Positions 10,083-60,516 of a DNA stretch of 64,000 nucleotides are shown here, piece after piece. The notes below the pieces were generated by a model, which was given only the letters and a program-made list of their open reading frames with translations, was not told where the DNA came from and ran no database searches. This DNA is from an uncultured Clostridia bacterium. GTDB taxonomy: Bacteria; Bacillota; Clostridia; Christensenellales; UBA1242. Position 1 is the first letter of the stretch. Every line of letters begins with the position of its first letter. The translations under genes and the position numbers were made by a program. The stretch covers positions 14,432-78,431 of the forward strand of contig CALVTD010000001.1 in NCBI GenBank assembly GCA_944359935.1, in the 5' to 3' direction.

Positions 10083-10832
10083 ATGATGATGAAACATGCA
10101 AAAAGCAAAAAAATTAAAATAATTTTTCTTGTGCTTATTGTGGCTTTGGTTATATGTGCAAGTGTTGTTGCGAATTATTTTTCCTCCTCACTTTTTATAG
10201 GCAGCGCGCAAAATTATTCAGGAGGTTTCACCGCTCAGGCAAATGAGTGCTACCTGATAAGCATCGCCAAATCGCAAAGCGAACTTGAAGCAAAAACGCT
10301 TGCTGGCGATTATGAAGAGTGCGGCGCCGCGGGATATATTTGGAAGCAGAACGAATATTATCATGTGATTTTCAGCGCTCATGAAAACCAAAATGATGCC
10401 TCTCTTGTGCAAGAGGCATTGCAAGAAAGGCTGCTGAAAACGCAAATTATTAAAGTGATTTTGCCGCCATATAGTTTTGAAGGCGATTTCACCGCCTCTC
10501 AGCATGCCATTTTGCAGCACAGCGCCAGCAGTTTTATGCAAAGTTTTAGAACGCTTGCAGATCTTGCTGTGGGCATAGAAACAAATGTTTACTCAAATTC
10601 CACTGTGCAAGAAAAACTTCAAAAATTGCAAAACTCCGCCAATAGTTTATGTGAAGAATTTAACAGTGAGTTTGCTAACAGTTCTCAAAACAAAATTGTC
10701 GCGCTTGGTGAATACCTTGCCGACCAGTTGGAGACGATTATGCTGACAAATGTTAGCGCCGCAAACATAAAGTACCATGCTGTGGAGATTTTGGACATTT
10801 ACAAAAACATGTGCACAGAATTTAACAGTTAA
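10083..10832 (+). CDS. Membrane-anchored protein with possible SPOR-like domain
   Basis: N-terminal TM helix (IIFLVLIVALVICASVV). The segment YLISIAKSQSELEAKTLAGDYEECGAAGYIWKQNEYYHVIFSAHENQNDA resembles a SPOR repeat. Start at the MMMKH cluster. Confidence 0.4.
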   Translation: MMMKHAKSKKIKIIFLVLIVALVICASVVANYFSSSLFIGSAQNYSGGFTAQANECYLISIAKSQSELEAKTLAGDYEECGAAGYIWKQNEYYHVIFSAHENQNDASLVQEALQERLLKTQIIKVILPPYSFEGDFTASQHAILQHSASSFMQSFRTLADLAVGIETNVYSNSTVQEKLQKLQNSANSLCEEFNSEFANSSQNKIVALGEYLADQLETIMLTNVSAANIKYHAVEILDIYKNMCTEFNS

Positions 10833-11532
10833 AAAGATAGTGAAAAAATTTTGGCAGGCTTTCACCCTCGCCCGTTGTCATAAAAAAGCAGTCGTTCCCT
10901 CCACTTTGCGGGCAAAAGCAGTTTAAGCGCTTTGCAATGCCTTGGCTGCTGGCAAAAAGTTCAGCATCACAAAAACTTGAAATCTGCGCCTTAATAGCCT
11001 CAAAATGCGTGCAACCCAAAACAATCGCCTTAGGCGAAAGAGGCAAAATGTTTTGTTTTAGATATGGCGTTAAACAATCCAAATCAAACAAATTTTGGTC
11101 TATCAGCGTTGGCAAATTTTGGATGGCAAGCGTGCGCATGCGCGGATGTTTTTTTGCAAGCGCGCTGTATTTTATCGTTGCAGGAGTGGCAAGCAAAAGC
11201 ACCTCGCTCTCGTCATATTTTTCACATGCAGGCTTAATCGCTGGCTCGCAACCAACAAAAATAATGTGCGGATAAAGCGCCCGCATTCTTTTAATTGCTG
11301 CCGCCGTTAAAGTGTTGCATGCAAAAATTATGATGTCTGGCTTAAAAAAAGAATTTAACAGTTCCACCAAATTTTTTGCAATATTTATTAAATTTTGCTT
11401 ATTTTTTTGACCATACGGCGCATTTTTTTCGTCAGCGAGATATAAAAATTGGCAGTCGTGAACTGAACCGAGCAAATTTTTCAGCACATTCAATCCACCA
11501 CTGCCGCTATCAATCACCGCTACTTTTTTCAC
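10822..11532 (-). CDS. murI: Glutamate racemase MurI
   Basis: VIDSGSGGLNVL, FACNTLTAAAI and LGCTHFEAI catalytic Cys motifs. Confidence 0.85.
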   Translation of the reverse strand: MKKVAVIDSGSGGLNVLKNLLGSVHDCQFLYLADEKNAPYGQKNKQNLINIAKNLVELLNSFFKPDIIIFACNTLTAAAIKRMRALYPHIIFVGCEPAIKPACEKYDESEVLLLATPATIKYSALAKKHPRMRTLAIQNLPTLIDQNLFDLDCLTPYLKQNILPLSPKAIVLGCTHFEAIKAQISSFCDAELFASSQGIAKRLNCFCPQSGGNDCFFMTTGEGESLPKFFHYLFNC

Positions 11533-11546
11533 ATATTTTATATATG

Positions 11547-12323
11547 CTACATAGTTAAACTAATTGCCTGTGAAATTATTTTTGAAAGGTTGTTTATTTC
11601 GCTGTGAATATCCTTTGGGGTTAAAATAAGTTTCTCTGGAAACTCGGGGCTAACCTTGCCTGCCAGCAGCATGGTTGGCACACCGATTGAAATGCACGGC
11701 ACGCCTAATGAGTCCTCGCAAAGTTTATTGCCCAAATTGTTTACCGCGCTTGCAGGCGTCATGCCCACATCGTTGATTTGAATGGAGGTTGTAAGCCTGG
11801 AAGGGCTGTCGGTTCCCAGCGCATCAATAATGCAAACCGCGTCCACGTCCAGCCAAATGGCAAGCATGTTCACGGCATCAAAAGAATTGATGCCGGTGTT
11901 AACAAAAATGTTGGGAGCAAACTTAAAAATGCGAAGTGGCTTTTTAAAAACCTCCAAATCCATTCTGTCCAAAACTTTTGGGCCTATGCTGTCTGCCAGT
12001 ATCGCTGGGTTGCCCAGCCCCACCACAAGGATGCGCGATGATTTGGTTAAATTATTTTTTCGTTTCAACAATCTCAGCCCCTTGCAAATTTGCTGGCAAA
12101 CATAGTCAAAACATTGCTGCCCATAGCCGTGCAGCAGCGGGCAGTTATAAATAATGTAAGTGCCCCTGTCAAACCCTGTGCGTTTAGATTTTTCGTTGCT
12201 GTCAACATCAATTTTGCCCACTCGCAGAGAAAATTTGCCATGCATGGTTTCTTCATAGCCCAAACTTTTTAAATCTTCGCCACATTCATCAATCAAATCA
12301 AACATACAAATATTTTGCGGCAA
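11547..12323 (-). CDS. gpr: GPR spore germination protease (peptidase A25 family), short form
   Basis: RGTYIIY, ILVVGLGNPAILADSIGPKV, IIDALGT...RLTTSIQINDVGMTP, LGVPCISIGVPTML; divergent from rpsT as in Bacillus. Start uncertain (TTG 12323 or ATG 12305). Confidence 0.7.
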   Translation of the reverse strand: MPQNICMFDLIDECGEDLKSLGYEETMHGKFSLRVGKIDVDSNEKSKRTGFDRGTYIIYNCPLLHGYGQQCFDYVCQQICKGLRLLKRKNNLTKSSRILVVGLGNPAILADSIGPKVLDRMDLEVFKKPLRIFKFAPNIFVNTGINSFDAVNMLAIWLDVDAVCIIDALGTDSPSRLTTSIQINDVGMTPASAVNNLGNKLCEDSLGVPCISIGVPTMLLAGKVSPEFPEKLILTPKDIHSEINNLSKIISQAISLTM

Positions 12324-12689: not shown

Positions 12690-12716
12690 AACCGAACAAA
12701 CTGTTCGGTTTTTTTA
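12690..12716. terminator. Bidirectional terminator between rpsT and the convergent 169-aa gene
   Basis: AACCGAACA/TGTTCGGTT hairpin flanked by an A-run and a T-run. Confidence 0.65.
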
Positions 12717-13223
12717 ATCTATGTTGATGCCGTGCCTTCTTAAAATTTCGCTTCCGGTTTCTCTTGCGCGCACTCTGGTTTCAAGATTGTATTCATACTC
12801 CTCTGCCGCAAGCGGGCTGCCTTTACGCTTTTTTGCCCCCTCTGTTTGCAAACGGATGGCTTCATCAGCCGCCTTTGAAATCACCTCAAAGTTTTCTTGG
12901 CTAAACTCTCCTTGCAAATTTTTAAGCCCATCAACGCCGTTTGTATAAACCTCTGCAACAACAGCCAGATACAAAGATTTGTCTGTTTTTTGATATTCCG
13001 CTGGCATCATGATTAGTGGTGCATCCAAATAAAACGGAGTTTTGTCATCACGCAATTTGTGCTCTTTAAAATCATACGCTACAACCACGTTATAACCCTT
13101 GCTGAACCTTGACAGAACCATCATTGACATTCCGTCTTTGTCAGGCAATGACAAACCTTTAATTTTTTTAATAAAAGTCTCGGTTAATGGTTGCTGTTTG
13201 ATAAGGTCGTTTTTTGTTGACAT
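12714..13223 (-). CDS. Hypothetical protein (169 aa), own promoter, function unknown
   Basis: GGAGGG RBS before MSTKND; TTGACT-17-TAAAAT upstream. It sits between two terminators, so it is transcribed separately from the phage-like operon. Confidence 0.4.
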   Translation of the reverse strand: MSTKNDLIKQQPLTETFIKKIKGLSLPDKDGMSMMVLSRFSKGYNVVVAYDFKEHKLRDDKTPFYLDAPLIMMPAEYQKTDKSLYLAVVAEVYTNGVDGLKNLQGEFSQENFEVISKAADEAIRLQTEGAKKRKGSPLAAEEYEYNLETRVRARETGSEILRRHGINID

Positions 13224-13280
13224 TTTGCCCTCCATGTTTAATTATTTTACCACAATTTAATATAAAAGTCAATAATGAAT

Positions 13281-13311
13281 AAAAAAAGAGGGCTTTTTTG
13301 CCCTCTTTTTG
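13281..13311 (-). terminator. Terminator ending the phage-like operon
   Basis: AGAGGGC-TTTTTT-GCCCTCT hairpin with flanking A and T runs, immediately after the holin stop. Confidence 0.65.
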
Positions 13312-13563
13312 TTAATTTTGCTCATCATCCTGCTTTTCTTCTGTCGCCTCGGCATCAGTTTGCGAAGAAGGGTCATCTTTTTTAGGCATTGTAACAACCC
13401 CCACTGCAACCAAAACCCCTGCGATGCTCATCACAATGTCGGCAATGGTTTCACCTTCAACATTGACGCTGAAAATTTTGCCAATCGCACTGCCAAGCAT
13501 CGCAAGAGCACCCGCAAGCGCCGTCCAAAAACTATATGAGCATATCAATTTTTTTATCTTCAT
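13312..13563 (-). CDS. Phage holin-like protein (two TM helices, acidic C-tail; phi-LC3/SPP1-type by pattern)
   Basis: SFWTALAGALAMLGSAIG ... IVMSIAGVLVAVGVV, followed by the tail DDPSSQTDAEATEEKQDDEQN. Confidence 0.55.
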   Translation of the reverse strand: MKIKKLICSYSFWTALAGALAMLGSAIGKIFSVNVEGETIADIVMSIAGVLVAVGVVTMPKKDDPSSQTDAEATEEKQDDEQN

Positions 13564-13786
13564 TTTTTCTTCTCCTTTTAGGAGTAACGATTTCTTTTAA
13601 ATATTCAACATCCTCTTTAATCTTCTCCACCACACCTATGTGCGCGGAAAGTTCATCGATGGTGTGCTGATACTTTTCCTCTCTTTTTTTGCTGTCTTTA
13701 AGTTGATAAACGAACAGCAGCACGAACAGAATTGCGAAAATGCCATTGCTGACAATCACGCTGACAATTTCCTGCCACAAATCCAT
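13532..13786 (-). CDS. BhlA/UviB-family holin-like protein
   Basis: Single N-terminal TM helix then LKDSKKREEKYQHTIDEL, matching the BhlA pattern (TM helix followed by K-x-RE-x-KY) as I remember it. Confidence 0.55.
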   Translation of the reverse strand: MDLWQEIVSVIVSNGIFAILFVLLFVYQLKDSKKREEKYQHTIDELSAHIGVVEKIKEDVEYLKEIVTPKRRRKNEDKKIDMLI

Positions 13787-14070
13787 TATTTTAACTCTTC
13801 AATAAGTTTGTCATAAAAAATGCCAAGTTCGCCTCGCAGTTGTGCGTTGGTTTGCACAAAACTCATTGCCACAGTTTTATCAAAATGCTTTAAAAATTCC
13901 ACTGTCGCCTCATATGCCTGCCTTTGTTTTTCAAGCAAACTAGAAGCAACCAAATTTTCACCACTATCATCCTGAACAATATCTTGCAATAAACTTTTCA
14001 TTTCCTGTTTTTCTCCTTTAATAAAAAGTCTTTTCAAAAATTTTGAAGAACCTCTGTCAAACATCTTCAC
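13786..14070 (-). CDS. Hypothetical phage-cluster protein (94 aa)
   Basis: GTG start overlaps the stop of the 489-aa ORF (GTGA); helical composition; no motif. Confidence 0.35.
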   Translation of the reverse strand: MKMFDRGSSKFLKRLFIKGEKQEMKSLLQDIVQDDSGENLVASSLLEKQRQAYEATVEFLKHFDKTVAMSFVQTNAQLRGELGIFYDKLIEELK

Positions 14071-15536
14071 GAGAAAACCTCAACTGTAATTTGCGGGCAT
14101 GAGATATGCGGAGCGGTTTGTTGGCAGTCAAAAGATAAGGAAAAGACTTTTCCAAAAACCCTCACTCTAAATCGTTGCGATAAGTCGCTGTCAGCAATTT
14201 GCAACTGCTGGCTTTGCGTTTCTGCGCTTATAGTAAGCGTGCCTTGGGTGTGCGGGCGAACAACCACCTCGGTTACGCATTTGTCATTGCCTGCATAACC
14301 AAAATCTGTTTGCGCGGAATTCCACTGCTTAGCAAGCGGAGTGCCGAAAAACAGTCCGTCATGGGTAAGTTGCCCAATAAGTCCCTTTTTCTCTCCCCTA
14401 AAAAGCGCACAAAGTTTTTTAACTTTTGGGGTTTGAATGGTAAATAATTGCCTGATGTCTATGCCACGCACAACCTCAAATTCTTCGGTTGTCATGTCGT
14501 AAACAACCATGGCGTTGTTGACATAAGTGCCGCTTTCACACCCCACCGTTTGGCTGTCGCCAAAGTCATATTTACACGCCAAGAAATATTTTCCGTCAAA
14601 GCAAACTCCGCTGCAATCGTTGTTGGCGTTTGCAGTCATGTTGGCAATAATTGGCAGTTCAATTTTTTCAACCCCGCTGCCTTTCAGCCTATACAGCCCA
14701 TCATCAGTGAAAAACATAATTTCTTCGCCGCTTTTAGCAATGGACTGCGGATAGATGTAAGAGGTGGAATGATAAATGTGCGTTTCTGCAACATCCGCGT
14801 TGGTGCTGTATAGCGACAACCTGGTTATGCCAAAATTGGTGAATAGATAAAGATAGTCTTTAAGCGCCACCAATTGCGTCATCCCTCCACGAATGTCTGG
14901 AAGTTCGGCAGTTTTCACATTGTCAAAGTTCCAAATGTCTATGCGTTGGCGGCTGTATTGAAGTTCATTGTTGTCGCCAATGGTAAGCAAAAACAGATAG
15001 GGGCCATACCAACACCCAGAAACAAACTTTGGAATATTTTCATATGTTTGAAAGCCAAGTCCGTTCAGCCCCACTGTTTGGTCGGCGCTGGAAGCAAAAA
15101 ACATGGTGTCGTTGTCGCTGTTAATTCTAAATGCCGCGCCGGTTGGAATTTCGGTGAAGGTGGCGTCGCTTTCATACATGAACTTGTCTTCATGAACATT
15201 GAAAAAATAGATTGTCATGTCCTGCGCCAAATAGAAAACATAATGTTTATCCTCGCCCGAATAACTTTCATACATCGGGAAATACCACGCCTTCAAAATT
15301 TCGGTTGCACCTATGTTAAAAGTGGTGTGCGCGTCACTTTGCGTCGAGGGTAAAGCAAGTTGTTCAAACCCATAACTAGGCGTCAGTGCACCTTTGCAAA
15401 AACTGAAATTATAACAATTTTTTGTTTGATTTATTTCAAGTTTTGCGTCATCTTCGCCCTTCCACTCGTCAAACTTATCAAATCGAACTTTTAAGGATTT
15501 GCTATCTTTGGTGGCAAAATTTTTTCTGTAAAACAT
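14067..15536 (-). CDS. Phage structural protein, unknown (candidate tail nozzle or distal neck protein; repeated beta-strand-rich segments)
   Basis: At 489 aa it is the largest post-capsid ORF. Aromatic-rich strand-like repeats (YLFLLT, YLYLFTNFGITRL, IMFFTDDGLYRL, KYFLACKY). The position matches the nozzle or tail gene of short-tailed phages. Function is inferred only. Confidence 0.4.
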   Translation of the reverse strand: MFYRKNFATKDSKSLKVRFDKFDEWKGEDDAKLEINQTKNCYNFSFCKGALTPSYGFEQLALPSTQSDAHTTFNIGATEILKAWYFPMYESYSGEDKHYVFYLAQDMTIYFFNVHEDKFMYESDATFTEIPTGAAFRINSDNDTMFFASSADQTVGLNGLGFQTYENIPKFVSGCWYGPYLFLLTIGDNNELQYSRQRIDIWNFDNVKTAELPDIRGGMTQLVALKDYLYLFTNFGITRLSLYSTNADVAETHIYHSTSYIYPQSIAKSGEEIMFFTDDGLYRLKGSGVEKIELPIIANMTANANNDCSGVCFDGKYFLACKYDFGDSQTVGCESGTYVNNAMVVYDMTTEEFEVVRGIDIRQLFTIQTPKVKKLCALFRGEKKGLIGQLTHDGLFFGTPLAKQWNSAQTDFGYAGNDKCVTEVVVRPHTQGTLTISAETQSQQLQIADSDLSQRFRVRVFGKVFSLSFDCQQTAPHISCPQITVEVFS

Positions 15537-15545
15537 AGCCCCTCC

Positions 15546-16097
15546 TTAATTTTTCCATTGTCTTTTTGGCAAAGTAAGCAAAGATTTTTTTCTAACAAAA
15601 CTAATCAGCGCATCTTTAAAACGCTTTTCATACAAAAGCGCCTCTTGTGAAAGCCCCTGCATAAACAGATACTCTCTTGCCGTGCCATACGCAAGCAGCC
15701 TTTCAGGAAAGATAACTTTTGCCTCATCGCCAAATTCAAACTTTTCTGGAACAATTTGATAAGTGATTTGCACCTGGCTTGCATTCACCTCAATATGGTC
15801 GGCTGATTGAGAATAAGCCAAATCTTTTCCGCCCTCGTCTTTAACGGCGATAATGCCACTGATTGGCTTAGAAAGCGCCGAAAAATTTATGATGCCCGAG
15901 TTTGCAGAAACAGTTTCTGTGAAAAGAATTGGCAGATATTCGGTGACAATTTCCTCATAAGCAAGGTTTAGACATGTAAGCATAGCGTCAAGTTTGGCAT
16001 TTTGAACATCATCGCCAGAAGTTGTGCCAACAAGCGATTTTAAGTCTTTTTCACCCAAAAAATCGCAACAAAGTTGAATTGTATCGTTAATTTTCAT
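15546..16097 (-). CDS. Phage structural protein, unknown (candidate head-tail adaptor)
   Basis: 183 aa, second gene after the capsid gene; AAGGAGG RBS; position-based inference only. Confidence 0.35.
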   Translation of the reverse strand: MKINDTIQLCCDFLGEKDLKSLVGTTSGDDVQNAKLDAMLTCLNLAYEEIVTEYLPILFTETVSANSGIINFSALSKPISGIIAVKDEGGKDLAYSQSADHIEVNASQVQITYQIVPEKFEFGDEAKVIFPERLLAYGTAREYLFMQGLSQEALLYEKRFKDALISFVRKKSLLTLPKRQWKN

Positions 16098-16408
16098 TTA
16101 AACACCTCTTTTAATTGCAAGACTGCATCTTTTATTTTGCCCTTTTCAAGCCTTTGATTTTGTGCATCCATCTCTCTAATAAGTTCGTCAAAATGCTCTT
16201 TGCGCGTTTTCCGTGCCAGAAAAATTGTTCGCGCGTCTAGCACCTCATATGGAATAGTCAGCGCATAAGTGCTGCCCCTTTGAGAGCGGTTGTGCAATTC
16301 AAAAACATTGCGCAAAGTGTTGTAGACAATAAAATAATTTTCGTCCACTTCCTTAATTCGACTTGCGATGTAGTAAGGGTCGCAGTCAAGCAAAATTTGG
16401 TTTTTCAT
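16094..16408 (-). CDS. Hypothetical phage-cluster protein (104 aa)
   Basis: First gene after the capsid gene; 4-nt overlap with the next ORF. Confidence 0.35.
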   Translation of the reverse strand: MKNQILLDCDPYYIASRIKEVDENYFIVYNTLRNVFELHNRSQRGSTYALTIPYEVLDARTIFLARKTRKEHFDELIREMDAQNQRLEKGKIKDAVLQLKEVFK

Positions 16409-16416
16409 TTTTTCTC

Positions 16417-16450
16417 CTTAAAAATCAAAGGGGCGAAAAACTCACCCCTT
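16417..16450 (-). terminator. Intra-operon hairpin plus U-tract directly after the capsid gene (probable partial terminator)
   Basis: Minus strand GGGGTGA-GTTTT-TCGCCCC followed by TTTGATTTTT; lies in the 49-nt gap after the capsid stop. Confidence 0.45.
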
Positions 16451-16457
16451 TTCATAA

Positions 16458-17690
16458 TTAACCTTGTGAATCTGTGCCAGAAGCAGTATCATCATCAGTT
16501 GTTGAAGCAACATCTGCTGGCAAGAAAGGATTTGTAACAGTTGACTTAATTTTGCTGATTTTTGCTTGTCCATTTGGTTTGTCGCATATAAGTTCAGCAT
16601 ATTTGACAAGTGTTGCAGTGTAAACTGGAAGGTTTGGAGTTTGTTTTAAAATTCTGCCATCCTCACCTTCAATCCATGTCCAATCGCAAAGTTCATGCAA
16701 AGTGAAGTCGTCTGTGTTAAGAAGATACATTGTGTCTTCATCCACAAATCTGTCAGCAACAAGCGGAATACCGTTGTGAGAAATTGCTTTAAAGCCGCCT
16801 TCAAGGTTCATGATGTCAATGTTCGTTCTGTAAGCGGTTAAGTATTGCTGATACGCCCTTCTTACCGCACTTGAACAAGCGATGAAGTTGATTCTTGAAT
16901 CAGCGTTCTCTTCCAAGAAATCAACAGCGGTTTGAATTAAGTTGTCGCTTATTTCTGTTTCAACACTTGAAGAATACGGTTTAAGCCATGGATAATCTGC
17001 TCTGGTAACCCCATAAAGAGTTGTGGAGTCGGAGAAGATTGCCCCAAGACCAGTGATGTCGTTATTTCTTGAAGATTGAACATATATGCCCATAGTTCCA
17101 CTTGAAATTGTCAAGTTTTTATCAATTGTGATTTGCTTGTTAACTCTGTCAACATACATTACTCTTGCTTTTGAAACTTGCAGAGCAGTGTTTTGATAGA
17201 TGTCTACCACCATGCCTTCAACCAGGTTGTTTACTTTATCACAGGTGATAACTTTGCCGCTGGATGCAGTTGCAGTTGCAAGCAATCCTGTGCCGTCACC
17301 ATAAAGCATTCTGCCAAGGTTGAATGCGCTGGCTTTAACAAGCCCTTCCATTTCATCTGTTAAAAGATTAACAAATGCGCCAATGTTGTTGGCAGAAGAG
17401 CGTACGGCCTTGTCGCTAAGTTCAATTTTGCCATAAAGGTTTTTAAGTGATGCCTTAAACTGAACATATTGGTTTTCAAATGCAGTTGGCAATGTTCCTG
17501 TTTCAGAGCCTGCACCAACACCGCCATTAAGGCCGTATGGAGCAAGTTTTATAATCTCCTTTCCCCAAATATCTTTGTTTGACCTTTTAATTTTGGCGTA
17601 AAGTGGGTTAACCGAAACATTAAGTTGATTTGCAACAACGCCCAAATAAACTGATTTCAGCGCGTTGTCAGCAGTTTCTAATGTAACCAT
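16458..17690 (-). CDS. Phage major capsid protein (HK97-fold type)
   Basis: 410 aa following the scaffold gene. The motif AFNLGRMLYGDGTGLLA resembles the conserved G-x-G-x-G-x-L segment of Phage_capsid family proteins. Strong GGAGGA RBS. Confidence 0.75.
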   Translation of the reverse strand: MVTLETADNALKSVYLGVVANQLNVSVNPLYAKIKRSNKDIWGKEIIKLAPYGLNGGVGAGSETGTLPTAFENQYVQFKASLKNLYGKIELSDKAVRSSANNIGAFVNLLTDEMEGLVKASAFNLGRMLYGDGTGLLATATASSGKVITCDKVNNLVEGMVVDIYQNTALQVSKARVMYVDRVNKQITIDKNLTISSGTMGIYVQSSRNNDITGLGAIFSDSTTLYGVTRADYPWLKPYSSSVETEISDNLIQTAVDFLEENADSRINFIACSSAVRRAYQQYLTAYRTNIDIMNLEGGFKAISHNGIPLVADRFVDEDTMYLLNTDDFTLHELCDWTWIEGEDGRILKQTPNLPVYTATLVKYAELICDKPNGQAKISKIKSTVTNPFLPADVASTTDDDTASGTDSQG

Positions 17691-17705
17691 AATTTCCTCC
17701 TTAAA

Positions 17706-18317
17706 TTAACTAAACATTTGCTCCACCAATTTTTTTGCGTCTTTAAGCGACGATGGAGTAACCGGCTTTTGCCCGGTTACTTTTTCACCATTGTCGCCGC
17801 TGATAATAAGTGGTGGATTTTTTGCATTTAGCATTCTCATGTAATTTTCAATGACATAATTTTTTAGTTCTTCATCATTTATTACATATTTTTTGATTAT
17901 AGGATTTTCAAGTTTTGACTCGTTTGTGTTAAGTTTGTCGACCAAAAGTTTTGCCCAAATCTCGTCAAAATTTGATTTTCCTCCGCCTTGCATACTCAAA
18001 TTTTTAAGTTGTTCGGCATAGTTTGTGGCATCGCTGTGCTTAGAAAGGAACTCGGCAAGTTCGCTGTCGATGGTTTTTTCGTCAGGAGTTGTTTGCGCAG
18101 GTTGTTGCTTTTCAAGTTCGCTAAGCCTCTGGCTTTTTCTTGTAAATTCTGCTTCCAGCGCCTTATATGCATCTAAGAGCGCCTCGGCAGACTTAAACTT
18201 TCCAAAGTCAGTGTGGTTTGAGGAGCCCTTTTCACTAGCGCCACTCTCACTATCTGTTGCCTGTGCAACCTCTGCCTGTTCCAAAGATGGTTGTTCCTCA
18301 AAAATTTCTTCTTGCAT
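17706..18317 (-). CDS. Phage scaffolding protein
   Basis: Acidic N-terminus and GKFKSAEALLDAYKALEAEFTRKSQRLSELEKQ, a motif typical of Firmicute phage scaffolds; lies between portal and capsid. Confidence 0.65.
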   Translation of the reverse strand: MQEEIFEEQPSLEQAEVAQATDSESGASEKGSSNHTDFGKFKSAEALLDAYKALEAEFTRKSQRLSELEKQQPAQTTPDEKTIDSELAEFLSKHSDATNYAEQLKNLSMQGGGKSNFDEIWAKLLVDKLNTNESKLENPIIKKYVINDEELKNYVIENYMRMLNAKNPPLIISGDNGEKVTGQKPVTPSSLKDAKKLVEQMFS

Positions 18318-20188
18318 TATTTAGCCTCCTTTTTCTCTTTAAGCATTTTCTTGTGCGCATTTATATGCTGCAAAAATCTTTGTTCCAAAGTGCTGTCTAA
18401 AAGCGACTGCTCTTCATAATCTCCACCAAGCATAAAGGCTATGTGCCTGTCGATGTGAAGTTCATGCTCGTCAATCTCGCTAACTTTAACTGGTTGGTTT
18501 TTGTATAGTTTAAGGTTTTCATTATCGGCTTTTTTGATGTGAAGTTCGTTGGTGTCCTGTGCGTTTTCCCAAATACCAAGCCCAAGCAGTTGCAGCGCCT
18601 TAACCTTCATTTTGGTGCTCATCTGGCCGTTTTCGTCATTCAAAAGCCCTGCATCAATCAGGTTGAACACCATCTGCCTGCGTTGCGATACACTTTCGCC
18701 TAAATCTGCTTGTGTTTCAAGTTCTATGTCATCGCTTGATATGTCGCTGGAATTGAAATAGAAAAGTTCCACTTCGCCGTTATCCCCAACAATTCTCGCA
18801 AGCCTTGGAATTATGGCAAACTGTTTGTATAAATTCAAAATCATCTGCGAAACGCTTTTCACGCAATCTTTCATGTTGTCTGCCGTGTTGTTGAGCCTAA
18901 GTTCATCCTGTTCAAGCATAAGTTCAAGCGCTGTGCCTGAAAGGTTGGACGAGGCCATACTGCTGTCAAAAACCTGATTTACTCCGCTGATGTCCTTAAA
19001 TTCGTTTAAAAGTTTGTCTTCTTCCTCTTCAAAACTTCCCGACAAATTTTCGCCATCCAAAAATTCTGGCGCGGTTGAGCCCTGCCTGTAAACCAAAATC
19101 TTGCCTGGGCACAGACCTTCATCTTCAAGGTTTTCAATGTCAATCGAGCCATCCTCAACAGTCAAAACTCCCATAGTGAGACGGTTCATAAACTCATGCT
19201 TTCTGTTTTTAACCGAGTTGTATGCGCGTTGCACTGGAATAAGCCTGTCAATCACGCTCACGCCCCAGAAAGAACTAACTTGATTGAGGGAAACCTGTTT
19301 AACAAATGGGAATGTTCTTGCCCCATCTGCGCCAATCTCGTATGGCAAGTCTCCATCAAAGAATAGATAGTCGCCAACCACAATTGTAAGCCTTCCATTT
19401 GGTCGCTCTGGGGATGGCTTTTCATATCTTTCAATAACAAGCGCGCTGTTGGTTTTAACCCCCTGACTGATTTTTGGAGCGGCAGATGAATATCCCAGCC
19501 CGCCAACGCCAACGCTTGTGGAAGACAGCGAGAAGATGTTGATGTCCTCGCCCTGCAAATCTATGTCATAACGGTTTTTAATTTCGCTCACATCCATCGC
19601 TCTTGCATGGATGATGCTTTGGCAAGCCTCCAAATTTTCACAGGTGAAACTGTCTGGATAAATTTCAAAAGGCGAGCAAACGGTAATCTCAACCTCACCA
19701 CTTCTAATTTGCTTGCCCTCTTCATCCTGTGCCACAACCTGCCCATGGGTCGGGTTCCATGTGATTTTATAAAAACTTGTGCCACAAATTTCGCTCCACT
19801 GCATAGCCTGAGTGATTTTTTTGTTAAGTTCAAGTTTGGCAGAGATGCTGTCTAGAATCTTTTTTGAAACTTTGGCAGCAAACACATCCTTTTCATCATT
19901 TGATGCTGGCAAAACTGTGGTGGTGGGTTTGATTTTGCCAAGTTTTGCAAGCCTTACATCCACAACTGGCGCGATATGGTTAAAAATTTCCCTCTCCTGC
20001 CAAAAATATTGTTTATCAAGGTCTTCAAGTTCGCCGCCATAGCCCACGCCGCAAAACTGATTGCCCATGTAAAAATTCATGTTCATAAGCCATTGCGTTT
20101 CAAAAGGCTTGCGCGCAAACTGCCTGGTGGCAAAATCGTCTTGAACAAATTTAACAATTTGCTCTTCCTGTTTAGTCATCTTTTTCAT
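18317..20188 (-). CDS. Phage portal protein
   Basis: 623 aa. N-terminal FETQWLMNMNFYMGNQF, central IPVQRAYNSVKNRKHEFMN, acidic helical C-terminus. Its stop shares 1 nt with the scaffold start. Confidence 0.8.
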   Translation of the reverse strand: MKKMTKQEEQIVKFVQDDFATRQFARKPFETQWLMNMNFYMGNQFCGVGYGGELEDLDKQYFWQEREIFNHIAPVVDVRLAKLGKIKPTTTVLPASNDEKDVFAAKVSKKILDSISAKLELNKKITQAMQWSEICGTSFYKITWNPTHGQVVAQDEEGKQIRSGEVEITVCSPFEIYPDSFTCENLEACQSIIHARAMDVSEIKNRYDIDLQGEDINIFSLSSTSVGVGGLGYSSAAPKISQGVKTNSALVIERYEKPSPERPNGRLTIVVGDYLFFDGDLPYEIGADGARTFPFVKQVSLNQVSSFWGVSVIDRLIPVQRAYNSVKNRKHEFMNRLTMGVLTVEDGSIDIENLEDEGLCPGKILVYRQGSTAPEFLDGENLSGSFEEEEDKLLNEFKDISGVNQVFDSSMASSNLSGTALELMLEQDELRLNNTADNMKDCVKSVSQMILNLYKQFAIIPRLARIVGDNGEVELFYFNSSDISSDDIELETQADLGESVSQRRQMVFNLIDAGLLNDENGQMSTKMKVKALQLLGLGIWENAQDTNELHIKKADNENLKLYKNQPVKVSEIDEHELHIDRHIAFMLGGDYEEQSLLDSTLEQRFLQHINAHKKMLKEKKEAK

Positions 20189-20406
20189 ACTTTCTCCTTT
20201 TTAAGTCGTTGTTTTAATTTGAATGGCGAAGTTGTGCCCTTAGGAACTTGAAGTTTTCCAATTTCCTCATACATGCCTTTTAAACAGTCGTTGCAAAAGG
20301 ATAATTCACGCTTGATTAGTCCTTTTGTGCTGAACGAATAATCGGCAAGGTTGTTGCAACCAATGAAATCACATTTGGTCGGTCTCTTGCACTTTTCTAT
20401 TTGCAT
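20185..20406 (-). CDS. Small Cys-rich (zinc-ribbon-like) protein
   Basis: CKRPTKCDFIGC ... FCNDC; ATGA overlap with the portal start. It occupies the slot where TerL normally sits. Confidence 0.4.
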   Translation of the reverse strand: MQIEKCKRPTKCDFIGCNNLADYSFSTKGLIKRELSFCNDCLKGMYEEIGKLQVPKGTTSPFKLKQRLKKEKV

Positions 20407-20758
20407 TTTCTTCCTCCTCTTTTAAAAGTTGCAGCAGGCGGATTTTTTCTTTCTCCAATTCTTCATCGCTCATCTTTTCCACCGAAAAATCACCATAAAA
20501 CTTTTCCAGCAGAATTTTCAGCGCTGACAAATCGGGTGAAAGTTGCTTTTTGGTAACCTTCTTTTTAGCAAGCACCTCTTCTCCATTTTCATCCACGCTG
20601 TATTCACAAACTTGCTCTTTGGCTATGTAACCCAGCGCCTTTTTAAGTAGTGCTTTTTTAAGTTTTTCTTCGCTTAGGTCGCTCAAAATTTCCCCCTCCT
20701 TGCAATAGTTAGCCCATTTTAACCCGCGCATGAGGGCAAATTCAATTTCGAGTGCCAA
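20369..20758 (-). CDS. Small helical protein resembling the C-terminal oligomerisation part of a terminase small subunit (no N-terminal HTH recognised)
   Basis: KKKVTKKQLSPDLSALKILLEKFYGDF resembles the K-x-PD-x-x-A-x-x-LL-x-K motif of Firmicute phage TerS proteins. Start is either TTG 20758 or ATG 20731. Weak call. Confidence 0.3.
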   Translation of the reverse strand: MALEIEFALMRGLKWANYCKEGEILSDLSEEKLKKALLKKALGYIAKEQVCEYSVDENGEEVLAKKKVTKKQLSPDLSALKILLEKFYGDFSVEKMSDEELEKEKIRLLQLLKEEEENANRKVQETDQM

Positions 20759-20811: not shown

Positions 20812-21591
20812 ATGAGCACGCTGCTTGAATTTAAAGATGTTAATTTTTTTTATCAAACCAAAGATGCGGAAATTCACGCACTTAAAGATTTAAACTTTAC
20901 AGTGGATAAAGAAAGTTTTGCGTCTATTGTAGGCCCAAGCGGTTGTGGCAAAACCACAATTTTATCGCTCATTGCAGGACTTTTGAAAAAAAGTTCTGGC
21001 CAGATATTGCTAAACGGAAAAGAAATCGATGAAAATGATTCCCGCATAGGCTACATGTTTCAGCGCGACCATCTTTTTGAATGGCGCAATATTTGGCAAA
21101 ATGTAACACTCGGCATAGAACTCACTAAACCAAAAGATGCCGATAAAAAAAAGGAATTTGCAAAATCCCTTTTAAAAAAATACGACCTCTACGATTTCAT
21201 CTCTTCAAAGCCTCGCGCACTAAGTGGCGGGATGCGACAGAGAGTTGCACTGATTAGAACCTTGGTTATGGAGCCAACGCTGCTGCTGCTTGATGAGCCT
21301 TTTTCTGCGCTGGATTTTCAAACCAGGCTTAGAGTTTGCGACGATGTTTATGAAATAATCAAAAGCGAGAAAAAAACCGCTGTTTTGGTTACGCATGACA
21401 TTTCGGAAGCAATTTCAATGTCAAACAAAGTGATTGTTCTCTCTTCTAGACCCGCAACTGTCAAACATGTACAAATGCTAAATCTTAATGGAGAAACCCC
21501 ACTGTCAAGGCGTGAAGACCCAACTTTTGGCAGCCTTTTCGACTTGATATGGAAAAAACTTACGAATGAAAAACAAACAACTGAAAACTAA
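20812..21591 (+). CDS. ABC transporter ATP-binding protein (NitT/TauT, SsuB-like family)
   Basis: GPSGCGKTT, LSGGMRQRVALIRTL, LLLLDEPFSALD, THD. Confidence 0.85.
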   Translation: MSTLLEFKDVNFFYQTKDAEIHALKDLNFTVDKESFASIVGPSGCGKTTILSLIAGLLKKSSGQILLNGKEIDENDSRIGYMFQRDHLFEWRNIWQNVTLGIELTKPKDADKKKEFAKSLLKKYDLYDFISSKPRALSGGMRQRVALIRTLVMEPTLLLLDEPFSALDFQTRLRVCDDVYEIIKSEKKTAVLVTHDISEAISMSNKVIVLSSRPATVKHVQMLNLNGETPLSRREDPTFGSLFDLIWKKLTNEKQTTEN

Positions 21592-22393
21592 ACCTTCTTC
21601 TGCTGCGCCCTACTCCAAAGCACATGAAAAGTATTTGAAAAGGCTTAGAAATGATAAAATCTTTGTTCTTTCCTTTCAAATTTTAATTCTAGTTTTAATT
21701 ATTGGACTGTGGGAACTTTTAGCAGCAACAAACGTCATTGACCCATTCTTCGTTAGTAGCCCATCAAGAGTGTTTAACATGTTTATAAGTATGGTGGAGA
21801 ATGGAACTATATGGCGACACATTGGCATAACTCTGCTTGAAACTTTGGTGGGGTTTGCCATAGCAACTTTGGGCGGAACGCTGATTGCCATTCTGCTTTG
21901 GTGGAACAAGCGATTAAGGCGAATACTTGAACCCTACATTGTGGTGTTAAATTCACTGCCAAAAATTGCGCTTGGGCCCATCATAATCCTTTGGGTGGGC
22001 TCTGGAATGAGCGCAATCATAACAATGTGTGTGCTTATCTGCATAGTTTTAACCACCATATCCATGCTAAATGCATTCAATTCTTGTGATGCTGATAAAA
22101 TTCAACTGATGAAATCTATGCACGCAAACAAGTTCCAAATATTTTGGAAACTTATTCTCCCCAATGCAACAAGCGAATTTATTTCGGTGTTAAAGATAAA
22201 TGTTGGCATGAGTTGGGTTGGAACTATCATGGGTGAATATCTTTCATCAAGTGCAGGGCTAGGCTATTTAATCGTGTATGGAAGTCAAATATTCAACATC
22301 AATCTTGTAATGACAAGCACAGTTCTGCTTTGCATACTTGCCGCGCTTATGTATCTGGCAATATGCTTAATAGAAAAGTGGCATTCACGCTAG
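21566..22393 (+). CDS. ABC transporter permease (SsuC/TauC-like)
   Basis: Multi-TM protein with an EAA-like loop (LMKSMHANKFQIFWKLILP). It overlaps the ATPase gene. No binding-protein gene is adjacent. Confidence 0.8.
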   Translation: MKNKQLKTKPSSAAPYSKAHEKYLKRLRNDKIFVLSFQILILVLIIGLWELLAATNVIDPFFVSSPSRVFNMFISMVENGTIWRHIGITLLETLVGFAIATLGGTLIAILLWWNKRLRRILEPYIVVLNSLPKIALGPIIILWVGSGMSAIITMCVLICIVLTTISMLNAFNSCDADKIQLMKSMHANKFQIFWKLILPNATSEFISVLKINVGMSWVGTIMGEYLSSSAGLGYLIVYGSQIFNINLVMTSTVLLCILAALMYLAICLIEKWHSR

Positions 22394-57635: not shown

Positions 57636-57711
57636 GGACTTGTAGCTCAGTTGGTAGAGCAATTGACTCTTAATCAATGGGTCCAGGGTTCGAGCCCCTG
57701 CAAGTCCACCA
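57636..57711 (+). tRNA. tRNA-Lys (anticodon CTT), CCA encoded
   Basis: GGACTTG/CAAGTCC acceptor stem, GCTCAGTTGGTAGAGC D-arm, ATTGA-CTCTTAA-TCAAT anticodon arm, CAGGG-TTCGAGC-CCCTG T-arm, ACCA end. Confidence 0.93.
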
Positions 57712-57786
57712 AAAACCAGCCTTTCGCGGCTGGATTTTTTCTTGCAGTGGCTGCAAAGGTTAAAACCTTTGCGCATGCTCCGCATG
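57694..57786 (+). repeat. 93-nt direct repeat, copy 1 (last 18 nt of tRNA-Lys, terminator hairpin, and ~55 nt downstream)
   Basis: Near-identical to 57884-57976. The only differences are in the A-run and the hairpin loop and flank. Confidence 0.9.
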
Positions 57787-57883
57787 CCGAACCCTGCACT
57801 TCGTCCAGGTCGGAGCAAGCGTGGTTACAACCACACTCGCTCGGCCATTCGCTTGTTGCTCCCCAGAGCAACGCTCATAACGC

Positions 57884-57976
57884 GCCCCTGCAAGTCCACC
57901 AAAAAACCAGCCCTCGCGGCTGGCTTTTTTCTTGCAGTGGCTGCAAAGGTTAAAACCTTTGCGCATGCTCCGCATG
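57884..57976 (+). repeat. 93-nt direct repeat, copy 2
   Basis: GCCCCTGCAAGTCCACCAAAAAACCAGCCCTCGCGGCTGGCTTTTTTCTTGCAGTGGCTGCAAAGGTTAAAACCTTTGCGCATGCTCCGCATG. Confidence 0.9.
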
Positions 57977-58450
57977 TACGAACCCCGGACAAGTCCGGGT
58001 CGCAAACTTCCAGTTTGGGCCATTCGGCTATAGTTTGCCTGCCGGCAAACGCCTCATACTACGCTTCCCCCGACAGTCCACCATGCTAAATTCGTTATTT
58101 TAAAGAAATTTATTTATTTTTATATAACTATTTCTGCTAGTTTAGAATTTGAGTTTAAATTTGATTTTACATTTCACACCTCCTTTTAGATAATTTTACT
58201 ATTCCCGTGTGGACACCATTTGTCACGCGAGAAAAGTTTTCGCAAGAATTTTAGCATTCTCGCTGTATCACCATTTGCTACAGCGGGAAAAGTTGTTAAG
58301 AAAAAATATCTCTGCTTTTGCAAAGATATTAGTCTCTCTACTTATATAACAAATACTTTTTAATTTCGTGGGGTCATTTTGGGCGATTTTCACGAAAATA
58401 ATTGAAAAAGCTTTGTTTATGTGATATATTTATTTAAAAGGAGTAAGATA

Positions 58451-59194
58451 ATGGTTGGATATTATTGTAGTGGTTTTGATGTTGAAAATGCTTTCGGTCA
58501 CGGACTTGGAGAGATGTTTAAAACAGAACTAAAAAACACAAGAAATATTGTGTATATTCCGGGTAGTCCAGATAAAATGGAAAAGGCAAGAACGAAATAT
58601 GTCCCTGCTTTTGTTGAGCATTTTAAAAAAGCTGGAATAGTATTTGATAATGTAAATATTATTTCGCCCGTATTGAGTAGTGATAAAGCAAAAGAAATGA
58701 TTAGAAAAGCAGATTTTGTTATGCTAATGGGTGGTGATCCTTTTAAACAAAAGGCGATGTGCGAAAAACTTGGCATTATGGACGAGCTAAAAAAATTTAA
58801 TGGTCTTATACTTGGTTTTAGTGCTGGCGCTATGCTTATGTCTAAATATATCATTATCACCCCTTGCAGTGAAGAATATCCTAATTTTAAAATTGAAGAA
58901 GGCTTAAATCTTGACGGAATATCAATCTATCCACATAATAATACAGCGGAAGAAAAGTATCCAGATGTTTTAGTCGCTGGTGATGAAACATATCGCAAAG
59001 AAGATTTGCTAAAAGTAGCAAAAAAATATGGAAAATTTTACTTGTTGCAAGATTACGATAACAAAGATATTAGCATAATAAAATTTACAGACGGAAAAAT
59101 GGAATTTTATACAGAAAACAATGGAAAGATTTGGGAAGCGGATAATGACGTTAACCTAATCGTAAACGAAAAACAAGAAGAAAGAATTAAATAG
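58451..59194 (+). CDS. Peptidase S51 (dipeptidase E / cyanophycinase-like) family protein
   Basis: VMLMGGDPFKQ, LILGFSAGAMLMS (nucleophile Ser), ISIYPHNN (His); AAAGGAG RBS before MVGYY. Confidence 0.68.
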   Translation: MVGYYCSGFDVENAFGHGLGEMFKTELKNTRNIVYIPGSPDKMEKARTKYVPAFVEHFKKAGIVFDNVNIISPVLSSDKAKEMIRKADFVMLMGGDPFKQKAMCEKLGIMDELKKFNGLILGFSAGAMLMSKYIIITPCSEEYPNFKIEEGLNLDGISIYPHNNTAEEKYPDVLVAGDETYRKEDLLKVAKKYGKFYLLQDYDNKDISIIKFTDGKMEFYTENNGKIWEADNDVNLIVNEKQEERIK

Positions 59195-59316
59195 TTCCTC
59201 TACTTATATAACCAACGCTTTCCCAAAATCGTAAGGGTATTTTTGCCCATTTTTACAAAAAAAAGTTTAAAAATTTTTACACAACAAAAAAGAAGCAAGC
59301 AAAAACAAAAAGCATT

Positions 59317-59523
59317 GTGAAGGCCCGCTGCAACTATCCTAGCACATTTTCAATGACGAGTACCATAAAGATTGAATTCTTAGATGAGCCAAACATACGA
59401 ACATCAGGAACATTTAGGGCTGCAAACGCATTTGGTGTTTACGAGAACCGAAGCTTTATTATAAATTTTAAGTATAATTCTTCTTCCGAGTCTTTTACAT
59501 TAGTGAAGTGCACTATTATTTAA
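59317..59523 (+). CDS. Doubtful hypothetical ORF (68 aa)
   Basis: GTG start, no RBS, no motif. It is listed only because it fills the space before the terminator copy. Confidence 0.15.
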   Translation: MKARCNYPSTFSMTSTIKIEFLDEPNIRTSGTFRAANAFGVYENRSFIINFKYNSSSESFTLVKCTII

Positions 59524-59545
59524 AATTTTTTATCTTAACTGACAT

Positions 59546-59580
59546 CACCAAAAAACCAGCCCTCGCGGCTGGCTTTTTTT
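59546..59580 (+). repeat. Third copy of the CACCA-plus-terminator segment (34 nt identical to 57897-57930); also acts as a bidirectional terminator
   Basis: CACCAAAAAACCAGCCCTCGCGGCTGGCTTTTTT; sequence diverges immediately on both sides. Confidence 0.85.
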
Positions 59581-60295
59581 ATCTTATTAAAAAACTGTCG
59601 TTAAACTTAATTTGGTTTTTTCCTATTCTTGGGCTGTACTCAACCCTAGGCGCTGGGAAATGCAAAAATTTATCGCTGTATAGCAGGTTGATAAACTCCA
59701 TCGCATGATATGGCCTTGGGGAAACAATTTTAGAGACATTGCAATAATCGTCAAAAAAGCAACGATGATTTTTATTTATCTCTAAAATTTTATGTGCTCT
59801 TGACTTGTCATATCTCGTTTTTGATGCTGACACATAATCTTTCTCGTTAAAAGTAATCAGGTTTATTCCCAAAGTAGTTGCCTCACCCATGATGTAAGCA
59901 TCATTTGAAGGAACATATTTACCAGTGGCTGCGCTGTATTCAATTTTCATTGGAGAAAGGCCACCATCATCATTAATTTCACAGTAACTGTAAGCCAATT
60001 TTTCAGCTTTTTTGGCATAGTTTAATTCGTTTGGAGTGATCAAAGGAATATAACATAACTCTTTAATAAAATCATCCACTATTTCGCTGTTGACTTGAGG
60101 ATTATGAACCTCGTTAAAAACAACACTTGGAACAATAAACCTAACCGCATACTTATTGCTCTTAACATCGTTCAAAAATTCAATAATCCTATCTTTCGTA
60201 TTCTGTGTAAGCGAAACTCCTCGTTCTTTACCATAGTAAATTTTGGCAAAGTTGATAAGCACATCCGAATCAATCGCAACATAAAGAGGTTTCAT
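59579..60295 (-). CDS. PIN-like domain protein with ~90-aa C-terminal extension (putative toxin)
   Basis: N-terminal YVAIDSDVLINF, then FNEV, SNDAYIMGEATTLG and ITFNEKDY supply acidic residues spaced as in PIN nucleases. ATGA overlap with the upstream small ORF. Confidence 0.5.
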   Translation of the reverse strand: MKPLYVAIDSDVLINFAKIYYGKERGVSLTQNTKDRIIEFLNDVKSNKYAVRFIVPSVVFNEVHNPQVNSEIVDDFIKELCYIPLITPNELNYAKKAEKLAYSYCEINDDGGLSPMKIEYSAATGKYVPSNDAYIMGEATTLGINLITFNEKDYVSASKTRYDKSRAHKILEINKNHRCFFDDYCNVSKIVSPRPYHAMEFINLLYSDKFLHFPAPRVEYSPRIGKNQIKFNDSFLIR

Positions 60296-60468
60296 TGCTC
60301 ACCCTCCTTTACATCTGGAAATTTAACCGCCACCTCATTCTCAATCGCAAAGGCCTCTGCCTCTTTAACCATTGCAACTAAACTTTCAAGCCTTTGTTGC
60401 TGCGACATCTTTGCCCGCTCTTTATGCATTTTTTCGCGAACTTTTTTAACATTTTCAATTTCTTGCAT
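60292..60468 (-). CDS. Small helical protein (58 aa), putative antitoxin or partner of the PIN-like protein
   Basis: Below the track cut-off. Hand translation gives MQEIENVKKVREKMHKERAKMSQQQRLESLVAMVKEAEAFAIENEVAVKFPDVKEGEQ. GGGGGAG RBS. Confidence 0.45.
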   Translation of the reverse strand: MQEIENVKKVREKMHKERAKMSQQQRLESLVAMVKEAEAFAIENEVAVKFPDVKEGEQ

Positions 60469-60488
60469 AACTCCCCCTTACAATCTTT

Positions 60489-60516
60489 ATTTTACAACAA
60501 ATTGTTAAATTGTCAA
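60489..60516 (-). promoter_or_regulatory. Promoter of the two-gene PIN module with internal palindrome
   Basis: Minus strand TTGACA (60511-60516), 16 nt, TAAAAT (60489-60494). The spacer contains AACAATTTGTT. Confidence 0.45.

Follow-up and report, generated by a model that had tools for sequence, protein, structure and literature searches.

What is a phage head operon doing between housekeeping genes of a gut bacterium, with no large terminase subunit (TerL) beside it to fill the heads? The question is raised by positions 13312–20758 of a 64-kb stretch of an uncultured Clostridia bacterium (contig CALVTD010000001.1; the whole stretch is called the window here), where a first, sequence-only reading had seen a terminase-less, tail-less phage head-plus-holin cluster and had offered three explanations: a trimmed prophage remnant, a capsid-encoding satellite, or a domesticated particle resembling a gene transfer agent (GTA). 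We consider it reasonably likely that the operon supplies the head, neck and lysis parts of a particle system which derives from a short-tailed phage, is fixed in the chromosome and is passed on vertically. It probably works like a GTA whose packaging motor is encoded elsewhere. The third explanation is therefore the best fit, in view of the fixed site, the co-divergence with host genes and the purifying selection described below, with two amendments: the system is not tail-less, and TerL is probably displaced, not absent from it.

Eleven co-directional open reading frames (ORFs) lie on the minus strand, packed with stop/start overlaps of 1–4 nucleotides (nt), all at the positions first reported. 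The features, by window position and with protein lengths in amino acids (aa), are these:

20716–20757, minus strand: promoter-like composite motif, TGGCAC-N6-TTGAAT-N18-TAAAAT, about 30 nt upstream of the TTG of the first gene
20369–20686, minus strand: protein like a small terminase subunit (TerS), 105 aa, by phrog_309 family matches
20185–20406, minus strand: basic, Cys-rich, zinc-ribbon-like protein, 73 aa, pI 9.5, placed by its position in relatives
18317–20188, minus strand: portal, 623 aa, by Pfam, PHROG and PDB sequence matches
17706–18317, minus strand: acidic scaffolding protein, 203 aa, by position and composition
16458–17690, minus strand: major capsid protein, 410 aa, by NCBIfam and PHROG matches
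16427–16451, minus strand: hairpin and T-run directly 3' of the capsid gene, from a scan for terminator-like structures (11-bp stem, 5 GC pairs)
16094–16408, minus strand: conserved 104-aa protein between capsid and adaptor, by family conservation
15546–16097, minus strand: predicted tail adaptor, 183 aa, by structure model and Foldseek and by a Pfam match of a homologue
14067–15536, minus strand: predicted tail nozzle or hub, 489 aa, all-beta fold, by structure model and Foldseek
13786–14070, minus strand: C-terminal domain of a DUF7934 protein, 94 aa, by family profile, Pfam and alignment
13532–13786, minus strand: BhlA-family holin, 84 aa, one transmembrane segment (hydrophobicity window)
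13312–13563, minus strand: second holin-like protein, 83 aa, two transmembrane segments and an acidic tail
13283–13310, minus strand: intrinsic terminator at the operon end, a GAGGGC-loop-GCCCTC stem followed by a T-run

The terminator and the hairpin with its U-tract after the capsid gene both stand where the first reading had put them; the hairpin is a possible attenuator.

Relatives give these genes their context. One genome per species was scanned; 207 species-level genomes hold a relative of the portal, and 80 loci were kept, with portal identities of 44–92% and nearly all from uncultured gut Clostridia. Most carrier records are labelled Clostridia, Firmicutes or Christensenella, many of them Christensenella or Christensenellaceae, and come from the guts of humans, ruminants, rabbits, chickens and other animals. 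When the window's proteins were mapped onto these loci and the ORFs clustered, a conserved order emerged: TerS-like gene, 73-aa gene, portal, scaffold, capsid, 104-aa gene, adaptor, nozzle and holins. Fuller elements have three further genes ahead of the TerS-like gene, namely F9 (about 180 aa, a phage-type transcription regulator by phrog_36 at 2e-7 and a weak match to sigma-70 region 4), F11 (about 260 aa, an SH3_3 protein encoded on the opposite strand) and TerL, so that complete relatives reach 11–14 kb as against about 7.4 kb in the window. The segment between nozzle and holins is variable; it carries DUF7934 and, in some clades, tail or fibre proteins (phrog_5302 at 6e-35, phrog_4176 at 1.5e-6).

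The structural genes are those of a short-tailed virion. The portal call was borne out by Pfam P22_portal (5e-18, above the cutoff) and phrog_156 (9e-42), with SU10_portal at 1e-6 and a PDB sequence match to the portal of phage GP4 (8jov, 3e-6). The capsid call was confirmed likewise by NCBIfam NF033394, capsid_maj_Podo (1e-81; 274 bits against a cutoff of 80), and by phrog_14242 (4e-60), and the protein is 26–28% identical to major capsid proteins of Arthrobacter and Microbacterium phages. The gene for the 203-aa protein lies invariably between these two (69 loci); it returned no profile match, and its assignment as scaffold rests on position and on an acidic composition that the pI of 4.8 upholds. 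The family of the 104-aa protein occurs in 56 loci and in two phage-like contigs (L089 and L090), and gave no credible match in profile or PDB searches, PHROGs included. One IMG/VR contig (L082) has four added small ORFs of 218, 114, 112 and 112 aa between portal and scaffold; it resembles the window in having no TerL upstream of its TerS-like gene.

The particle was first thought to be tail-less, and the 104-, 183-, 489- and 94-aa proteins to be unknowns. Searches of PDB sequences with profiles of the 104-, 183- and 489-aa families found no matches. AlphaFold2 (AF2) models, built on small alignments, and Foldseek, which the sequence-only reading had proposed as a check, gave an adaptor and a nozzle for the 183- and 489-aa proteins. 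The model of the 183-aa protein (mean predicted local distance difference test, pLDDT, 89.7) matches the KHP30 tail (7wmp_m, 3e-6), Pa223 (9nwi_A), the SU10 adaptor (7z47_B), N4 and T7 gp11 in the PDB, and a homologue (P0150) that is 55% identical to it matches Pfam SU10_adaptor at 1e-5; by this prediction it is a podovirus tail adaptor, which would join the portal to the nozzle. The 489-aa model (pLDDT 84.8; predicted template modelling score, pTM, 0.86) matches the Pa223 tail (9nwi_Y, 8e-19, template modelling score 0.71), VP1 (8zkk_O) and SU10 (7z47_G), and further a chain of the P22 tail complex (9jg6_a) and the T7 nozzle gp12; by predicted structure it is a podovirus tail nozzle. Because adaptor and nozzle are encoded, a minimal podovirus neck and tail core, the operon is not tail-less, and portal, capsid, adaptor and nozzle follow one another in the order of a P22- or SU10-like virion module. 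No needle, spike, fibre or ejection proteins were found in the operon. Of the four unknowns the 104-aa protein keeps no assignment, as does the 73-aa protein; the 94-aa one is a C-terminus of DUF7934.

Upstream of the portal, the most probable start of the first gene is the TTG at 20686, which a strong ribosome-binding site (AAGGAGGGGG) precedes and which the public gene call also uses. The TerS likeness first proposed for it stands and its length does not: the 129-aa version started 72 nt too early and the protein has 105 aa. Among 25 members of its family, 22 match phrog_309 (terminase small subunit; best E-value 1.8e-8). Since the match spans only positions ~195–275 of the 319 in that profile, the protein appears to be without the usual N-terminal DNA-binding part; read from its length, it would have lost DNA binding, and a small terminase without a sequence-specific DNA-binding domain is a mark of GTAs. 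Between this gene and the portal lies that of the 73-aa protein, whose family occupies the same place in 42 loci and has no match in Pfam, PHROG or NCBIfam.

At the other end of the operon, the two holin types of the first reading fared unequally: the BhlA family is borne out by PF10960 (2e-15), while the second protein is weaker (Phage_holin_1 at 9e-4, below the cutoff) but has two transmembrane segments, seen as hydrophobic windows; its family is found in 33 loci. The claim that every ORF is intact holds for ten of the eleven. The 94-aa ORF (DUF7934 family hidden Markov model, HMM, at 2e-7; positions 275–322 of the 333 in Pfam PF25588) corresponds to the last ~60 residues of a coiled-coil DUF7934 protein that has 300–370 aa (about 330) in relatives, many of which carry the full-length gene after the nozzle gene. 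It is clearly truncated, and the remnant is down to 46 aa in an L010-like sister species (head loci L121–L128) as against 94 aa in the window, so that erosion of this one gene seems to continue, the other ten remaining intact.

How long, then, has the operon been where it is? Its flanks are housekeeping genes. The first reading named rpsT and gpr on one side and an ABC transporter on the other, and this stands: the former side holds rpsT, groES/groEL, a racemase-like gene and a GPR-like protease gene that is short, the latter an ABC ATPase/permease pair. The same groESL-gpr-rpsT/ABC site is occupied in at least ten species (L002, L003, L005–L008, L010, L011, L032, L064), with GroEL identities of 82–94% and portal identities of 70–92%. 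Portal identity follows that of adjacent host genes, the only ones compared, with Spearman coefficients of 0.70–0.89 for eight of nine of them. Ratios of nonsynonymous to synonymous divergence (dN/dS) against L002, L003 and L064 are 0.03–0.35 over all eleven genes, the 94-aa fragment included (0.10–0.24; TerS-like gene 0.05–0.09), which is the range of the flanking housekeeping genes; the values are rough because dS is saturated (~1–2). Vertical inheritance and purifying selection on structural genes, within these limits, are what a GTA would show, and the synteny and dN/dS comparison that the sequence-only reading had called for thus returned a fixed site under selection. In distant clades the operon lies at other sites, flanked by Ddl, RNase J, a gene of the phosphoglucomutase family, a polysaccharide deacetylase gene and an SSB-like gene; a MiaB-like gene, Prp, OGG, NfeD/FloA and PolA also turned up in the relatives' flanks examined. 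The same flanks recur in clades with only 45–53% portal identity.

Nothing at the site suggests mobility. A repeat search of the window found no att-like repeats around the operon, and no TerL, protease, fibre, integrase or lysin gene is present at the locus, all as first reported; integrase, repressor and replication genes are likewise absent from the relatives' flanks examined. The cluster is thus, here and in its relatives, a set of phage structural genes in a chromosome with no genes for integration, replication or lysogeny, as expected of a GTA. None of the 80 loci lies in a complete prophage carrying these genes. Isolated phages are distant (Arthrobacter and Microbacterium podoviruses, 22–28% identity); the nearest phage-like contigs, from IMG/VR (L089–L091), span 36–49 kb, carry numerous small genes on the opposite strand and have the same module order, and their capsids are 35–39% identical. 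A handful of short contigs in IMG/VR also carry the gene set of the window operon. Three loci come from records labelled Alistipes finegoldii, Eggerthellaceae and [Ruminococcus] torques (L023, L032 and L038); their flanks match those of Clostridia loci, L032 having nearly the layout of L010, and they are probably mis-binned or mislabelled contigs, not cases of cross-phylum transfer. An rRNA operon or an assembly gap was ruled out as the explanation of an ORF-poor stretch upstream of L042-type elements.

Where is the packaging motor? HMMs for TerL, F9, F11 and tail proteins gave no match in any of the six frames of the window. "Terminase-less" is therefore right for the locus and for the 64 kb around it; for the system it is not, TerL being adjacent or nearby in most relatives. 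In 48 of the 80 loci the TerS-like gene has a TerL gene (about 480 aa; Terminase_6N, 6e-15) immediately upstream, with F9 and F11 ahead of it. Two lineages lack it at this place, the L014–L017 type, with NfeD/FloA there, and the window's wider lineage, with the ABC transporter there. Two members of the latter (L027 and L106) carry both modules on one contig, about 6 kb apart, in the order mgsA, X, F9, F11, TerL, an 800-aa protein, f200, f321, ABC permease, ATPase, TerS-like gene and portal; by this gene order the packaging and regulator module has been split from the head module by host genes. Stand-alone F9-F11-TerL modules were found besides (L097–L101, L107–L108, L110–L120), most of them next to mgsA, with no head genes within 6–10 kb and with TerL 80–89% identical to that of L027. 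We infer that in the window's genome, too, TerL is supplied in trans, because the TerS-like protein, portal, adaptor and nozzle are strongly constrained, because stand-alone TerL modules persist in relatives, and because the head operon shares a promoter motif with F9.

Two other places for a terminase were looked at and ruled out. A divergent TerL among the window's unknown ORFs is excluded by the nozzle and adaptor assignments of the 489- and 183-aa proteins and by the empty six-frame search, and the upstream ORFs of L016-type loci that might have been a split TerL (F33 and F34) are FloA and a host protein.

Some genes around the displaced module deserve mention in their own right. Most split-lineage loci have, after TerL, a fast-evolving protein of 794–850 aa (L027:3536–5932, L097:11508–13955, L106:11536–14004; it is not in L108) with identities of 32–53% where TerL has 80–89%, of which only the N-terminus matches a PHROG of unknown function. 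The idea that it is a displaced tail fibre is unsupported, as it matches that one PHROG and has no homology to tail ORFs of complete elements; it could belong to the system or be a surface protein of the host. The ABC ATPase/permease pair of the window (20812–22393) has no substrate-binding gene beside it, and a gene for an NMT1-type binding protein adjoins the stand-alone TerL module, or lies one gene away, in L097–L101, L107 and L111–L120. From the place of this gene, past rearrangements may have cut a transporter operon between the two modules.

The promoter region may tie the two modules together. With the corrected TTG start, the gap to the ABC gene, first given as 53 nt, becomes about 125 nt and contains the composite motif, which occurs once in the window. 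In the 15 loci inspected from the window's and sister lineages this region is conserved ahead of the head genes, some of them differing by one or two bases. The pattern TGnCAy-N6-TTGA with a -10 box, whose background frequency is 0.025 per kb, also precedes F9 in 12 of 34 F9 loci and in three TerL-only loci; it was not found before TerL itself. Because the architecture is shared, the detached head operon would answer the same upstream signal as F9, and the two loci are predicted to be co-regulated through a motif whose promoter function is itself a prediction. A sigma-54 promoter was considered for the TGGCAC motif and ruled out: the spacer exceeds the sigma-54 length by one base, GA stands at the -12 element in place of GC, and a good -35/-10 pair follows.

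A system of this kind has a close parallel. FpGTA, of Faecalibacterium prausnitzii, is a podovirus-type, multi-locus GTA-like system (PMC12946183, Nat Commun 2026), so that the architecture, which the sequence-only reading did not recognise as described, is of a kind already reported; among the papers searched, no other describes the present element. Operon I of FpGTA encodes a TerS with no obvious DNA-binding domain, TerL, portal, a Prp-like protein, capsid, adaptor, nozzle and an abundant coiled-coil "TolA-like" protein, along with a scaffold, and operon II, 125 kb away, encodes fibres, holin and endolysin; the particles measure about 40 nm, have no visible tail and contain host DNA of 8.4–8.9 kb (PMC12946183). 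The same study reports GTA-like packaging of fragments of ~4–6 kb in metagenome-assembled genomes of Christensenellaceae (HGM11616, QANA01), with no locus assigned (PMC12946183).

Common to FpGTA and the family described here are a chromosomal location in a Gram-positive gut host, podovirus-type genes, no replication or integration genes, a similar content and order (TerL, portal, capsid, adaptor, nozzle and coiled-coil protein), a scaffold, a TerS with no obvious DNA-binding domain, a division over more than one locus and release by holins, the last being a prediction for the family here. They differ in several respects. The FpGTA capsid is annotated as N4-gp56, whereas the capsid here matches capsid_maj_Podo only, with no N4-gp56 match; because the capsid families differ, compared by annotation and not by sequence, we place the element in a lineage of its own, outside the FpGTA family. 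Its two modules part between TerL and the TerS-like and portal genes, and the holins stand with the head genes, where in FpGTA they stand with the fibres; FpGTA has fibre and endolysin genes in operon II, and the window operon has no fibre, receptor-binding or endolysin gene. FpGTA is also backed by particles, packaged DNA and proteomics, whereas the present element has been met only as genes. We read it as an undescribed lineage of a known kind, the FpGTA-like GTA systems.

A working sequence can be envisioned from these parts. The dedicated promoter (20757–20716) would drive a single 7.4-kb transcript, and a procapsid would be built from portal, scaffold and capsid. The 105-aa TerS-like protein would then recruit TerL from the second locus, where it is encoded with F9 and F11, and the recruited motor would fill the heads with DNA with no sequence specificity. 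Adaptor and nozzle would seal the portal as a minimal podovirus tail, and the two holins would release the particles. Packaging of host DNA, as in a GTA, would be the outcome.

Several observations weigh against this account. TerL, F9 and F11 are absent throughout the window, and no TerL-only contig could be linked to a genome of the window's lineage by cluster accessions, TerL matches found only at NCBI or sample overlap. The operon has no fibre or receptor-binding gene and no endolysin gene. DUF7934, cut to 94 aa here and 46 aa in the sister species, resembles partial erosion. Co-divergence was compared with adjacent genes only, and the saturated dS makes the selection estimates rough. Function, finally, is not transferable from FpGTA by homology, because the capsid families differ. 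With DUF7934 cut short and fibre and lysin genes lacking, the role of the system in the window's lineage may be a reduced or altered one.

Of the other explanations, the one that survives best takes the absence of TerL at face value: the motor has truly been lost, and the operon still makes particles or parts for a motor-free function. It might release capsids, empty or filled with protein, through holin lysis, act as a lysis or bacteriocin-like cassette, or make heads that a co-resident phage fills with its own terminase. We regard it as unlikely, even though 64 kb hold no TerL, no TerL contig is tied to the lineage, DUF7934 is truncated, fibres are missing and the operon has a promoter of its own. 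The TerS-like protein, portal, adaptor and nozzle are constrained as strongly as the capsid, for which only the packaging and delivery of DNA gives a reason; stand-alone TerL modules persist, highly conserved, in relatives; and the promoter of the head operon resembles that of F9, the regulator associated with TerL. A narrower version, in which TerL is lost yet portal, TerS-like protein, capsid, adaptor, nozzle and holins remain under selection for a new particle role with no motor of its own, is a shade more doubtful again. If true, it would make the product a DNA-free or cargo capsid, or a head relying on terminases of resident phages, and so a kind of domesticated particle that is so far undescribed.

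A capsid-encoding phage satellite that borrows terminase and fibres from a helper and moves between cells is distinctly improbable. It would account for capsid genes kept in the absence of TerL, fibres and lysin, and for the few short IMG/VR contigs with the same gene set. Against it, neither the window nor the relatives' flanks examined hold integrase, excisionase, replication or repressor genes or att repeats, nor any replication and regulation module; in place of the variable, patchy presence of a satellite, the same site is occupied across species and the genes co-diverge with those of the host; and the matching TerL family is chromosomal and adjoins the module in most lineages. Least probable of all is an inert prophage remnant that has not yet decayed, for although head genes stand here with no motor, fibres or lysin and DUF7934 is clearly truncated, at least ten species, saturated at their synonymous sites, keep ten of the eleven ORFs intact (the exception, the 94-aa ORF, is cut shorter or absent in some), dN/dS stays well under 1 and like that of the neighbouring housekeeping genes (0.03–0.35), the order is kept in about 70 further species, and no relative has these genes within a full prophage, the nearest phage-like contigs sharing only 35–39% capsid identity. 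Both signs that the sequence-only reading had named for an ordinary remnant, relatives with a complete prophage at the site and relaxed selection, are thus absent.

The fixed, vertically inherited GTA-like system that we favour can also be set beside more distant models. RcGTA of the Alphaproteobacteria is likewise a domesticated phage cluster with vertical inheritance, purifying selection, several loci and host-controlled lysis. Its gp1 is a TerS without DNA-binding domain. The lack of this domain in RcGTA-type GTAs is stated in PMC12946183 as well. RcGTA differs in being siphovirus-like, with tail tube and tape measure, in keeping TerS, TerL and portal together, and in belonging to an unrelated lineage and host phylum; structural likeness is limited to generic neck proteins (weak adaptor matches at Foldseek ranks 25–29). 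PBSX of Bacillus, listed as GTA-like (PMC12946183), is also chromosomal, non-replicating, conserved and released by lysis, and its particles package host DNA, but it is a myovirus-like killing particle with a contractile tail, whereas no sheath, tube or baseplate is encoded here; the relatives' TerL matches the PBSX-family model weakly.

Short-tailed phages of the SU10, Pa223, VP1 and P22 type have the portal (P22_portal, SU10_portal), adaptor and nozzle folds in common with the operon. The phage-like contigs L089–L091 share the order TerL, small genes, portal, scaffold and capsid, followed in L089 and L090 only by the 104-aa gene and ORFs of adaptor and nozzle size; they differ in being genomes of 36–49 kb with early genes on the other strand and with fibres, as against about 7.4 kb at a fixed host locus with no replication genes. 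Capsid-forming phage-inducible chromosomal islands (cf-PICIs) are, similarly, small chromosomal elements with their own capsid and portal and less than a full virion. They carry an integrase, regulators, replication genes and both terminase subunits, and borrow tails. The operon, unlike them, is free of mobility genes, retains neck and nozzle and has no TerL at its own locus.

Few GTA-like systems are known outside the Alphaproteobacteria, and the first from a gut commensal, FpGTA, dates from 2026. The locus family is a concrete candidate for the Christensenellaceae GTA-like packaging that lacks named genes (PMC12946183), offering a portal, a capsid_maj_Podo capsid, an adaptor, a nozzle, a TerS-like protein and a detachable TerL and regulator module; relatives of the portal occur in at least 207 species-level genomes. 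The natural series from intact cluster, through modules ~6 kb apart, to unlinked modules shows the dispersal of a domesticated phage cluster with co-regulation apparently kept. Should these particles carry DNA between cells, they would serve as a major channel for gene flow within a section of the gut microbiota that is poorly cultured but heritable and associated with health.

A few neighbouring genes remain to be noted. Between the operon terminator and rpsT lies a 173-aa ORF (12714–13235, minus strand) with its own promoter-like site (13272–13244) and no family match. It evolves fast, with 43% and 37% identity to its counterparts in L002 and L003, dN/dS of 0.26–0.38 and neighbours at 80–95% identity, and other species have unrelated ORFs of 142–225 aa in the same position; being fast-evolving, under its own promoter and confined to the closest relatives, it was ruled out as a part of the system. 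The "gpr" gene (11547–12323, minus strand) is short, its 258 aa covering positions 20–228 of the 306-position GPR model, and the glutamate-racemase-like gene next to it (10822–11532, minus strand) scores under the curated cutoffs. SpoVA genes lie near the TerL module in one relative (L109). Elsewhere in the window, a tRNA-Lys(CTT) gene (57636–57711) is followed by a stretch of low GC content (0.33–0.37 in the region 57636–61000, about 0.40 elsewhere) within which a glycosyltransferase gene is found (60588–61781); this stretch may be a variable surface-polysaccharide island.

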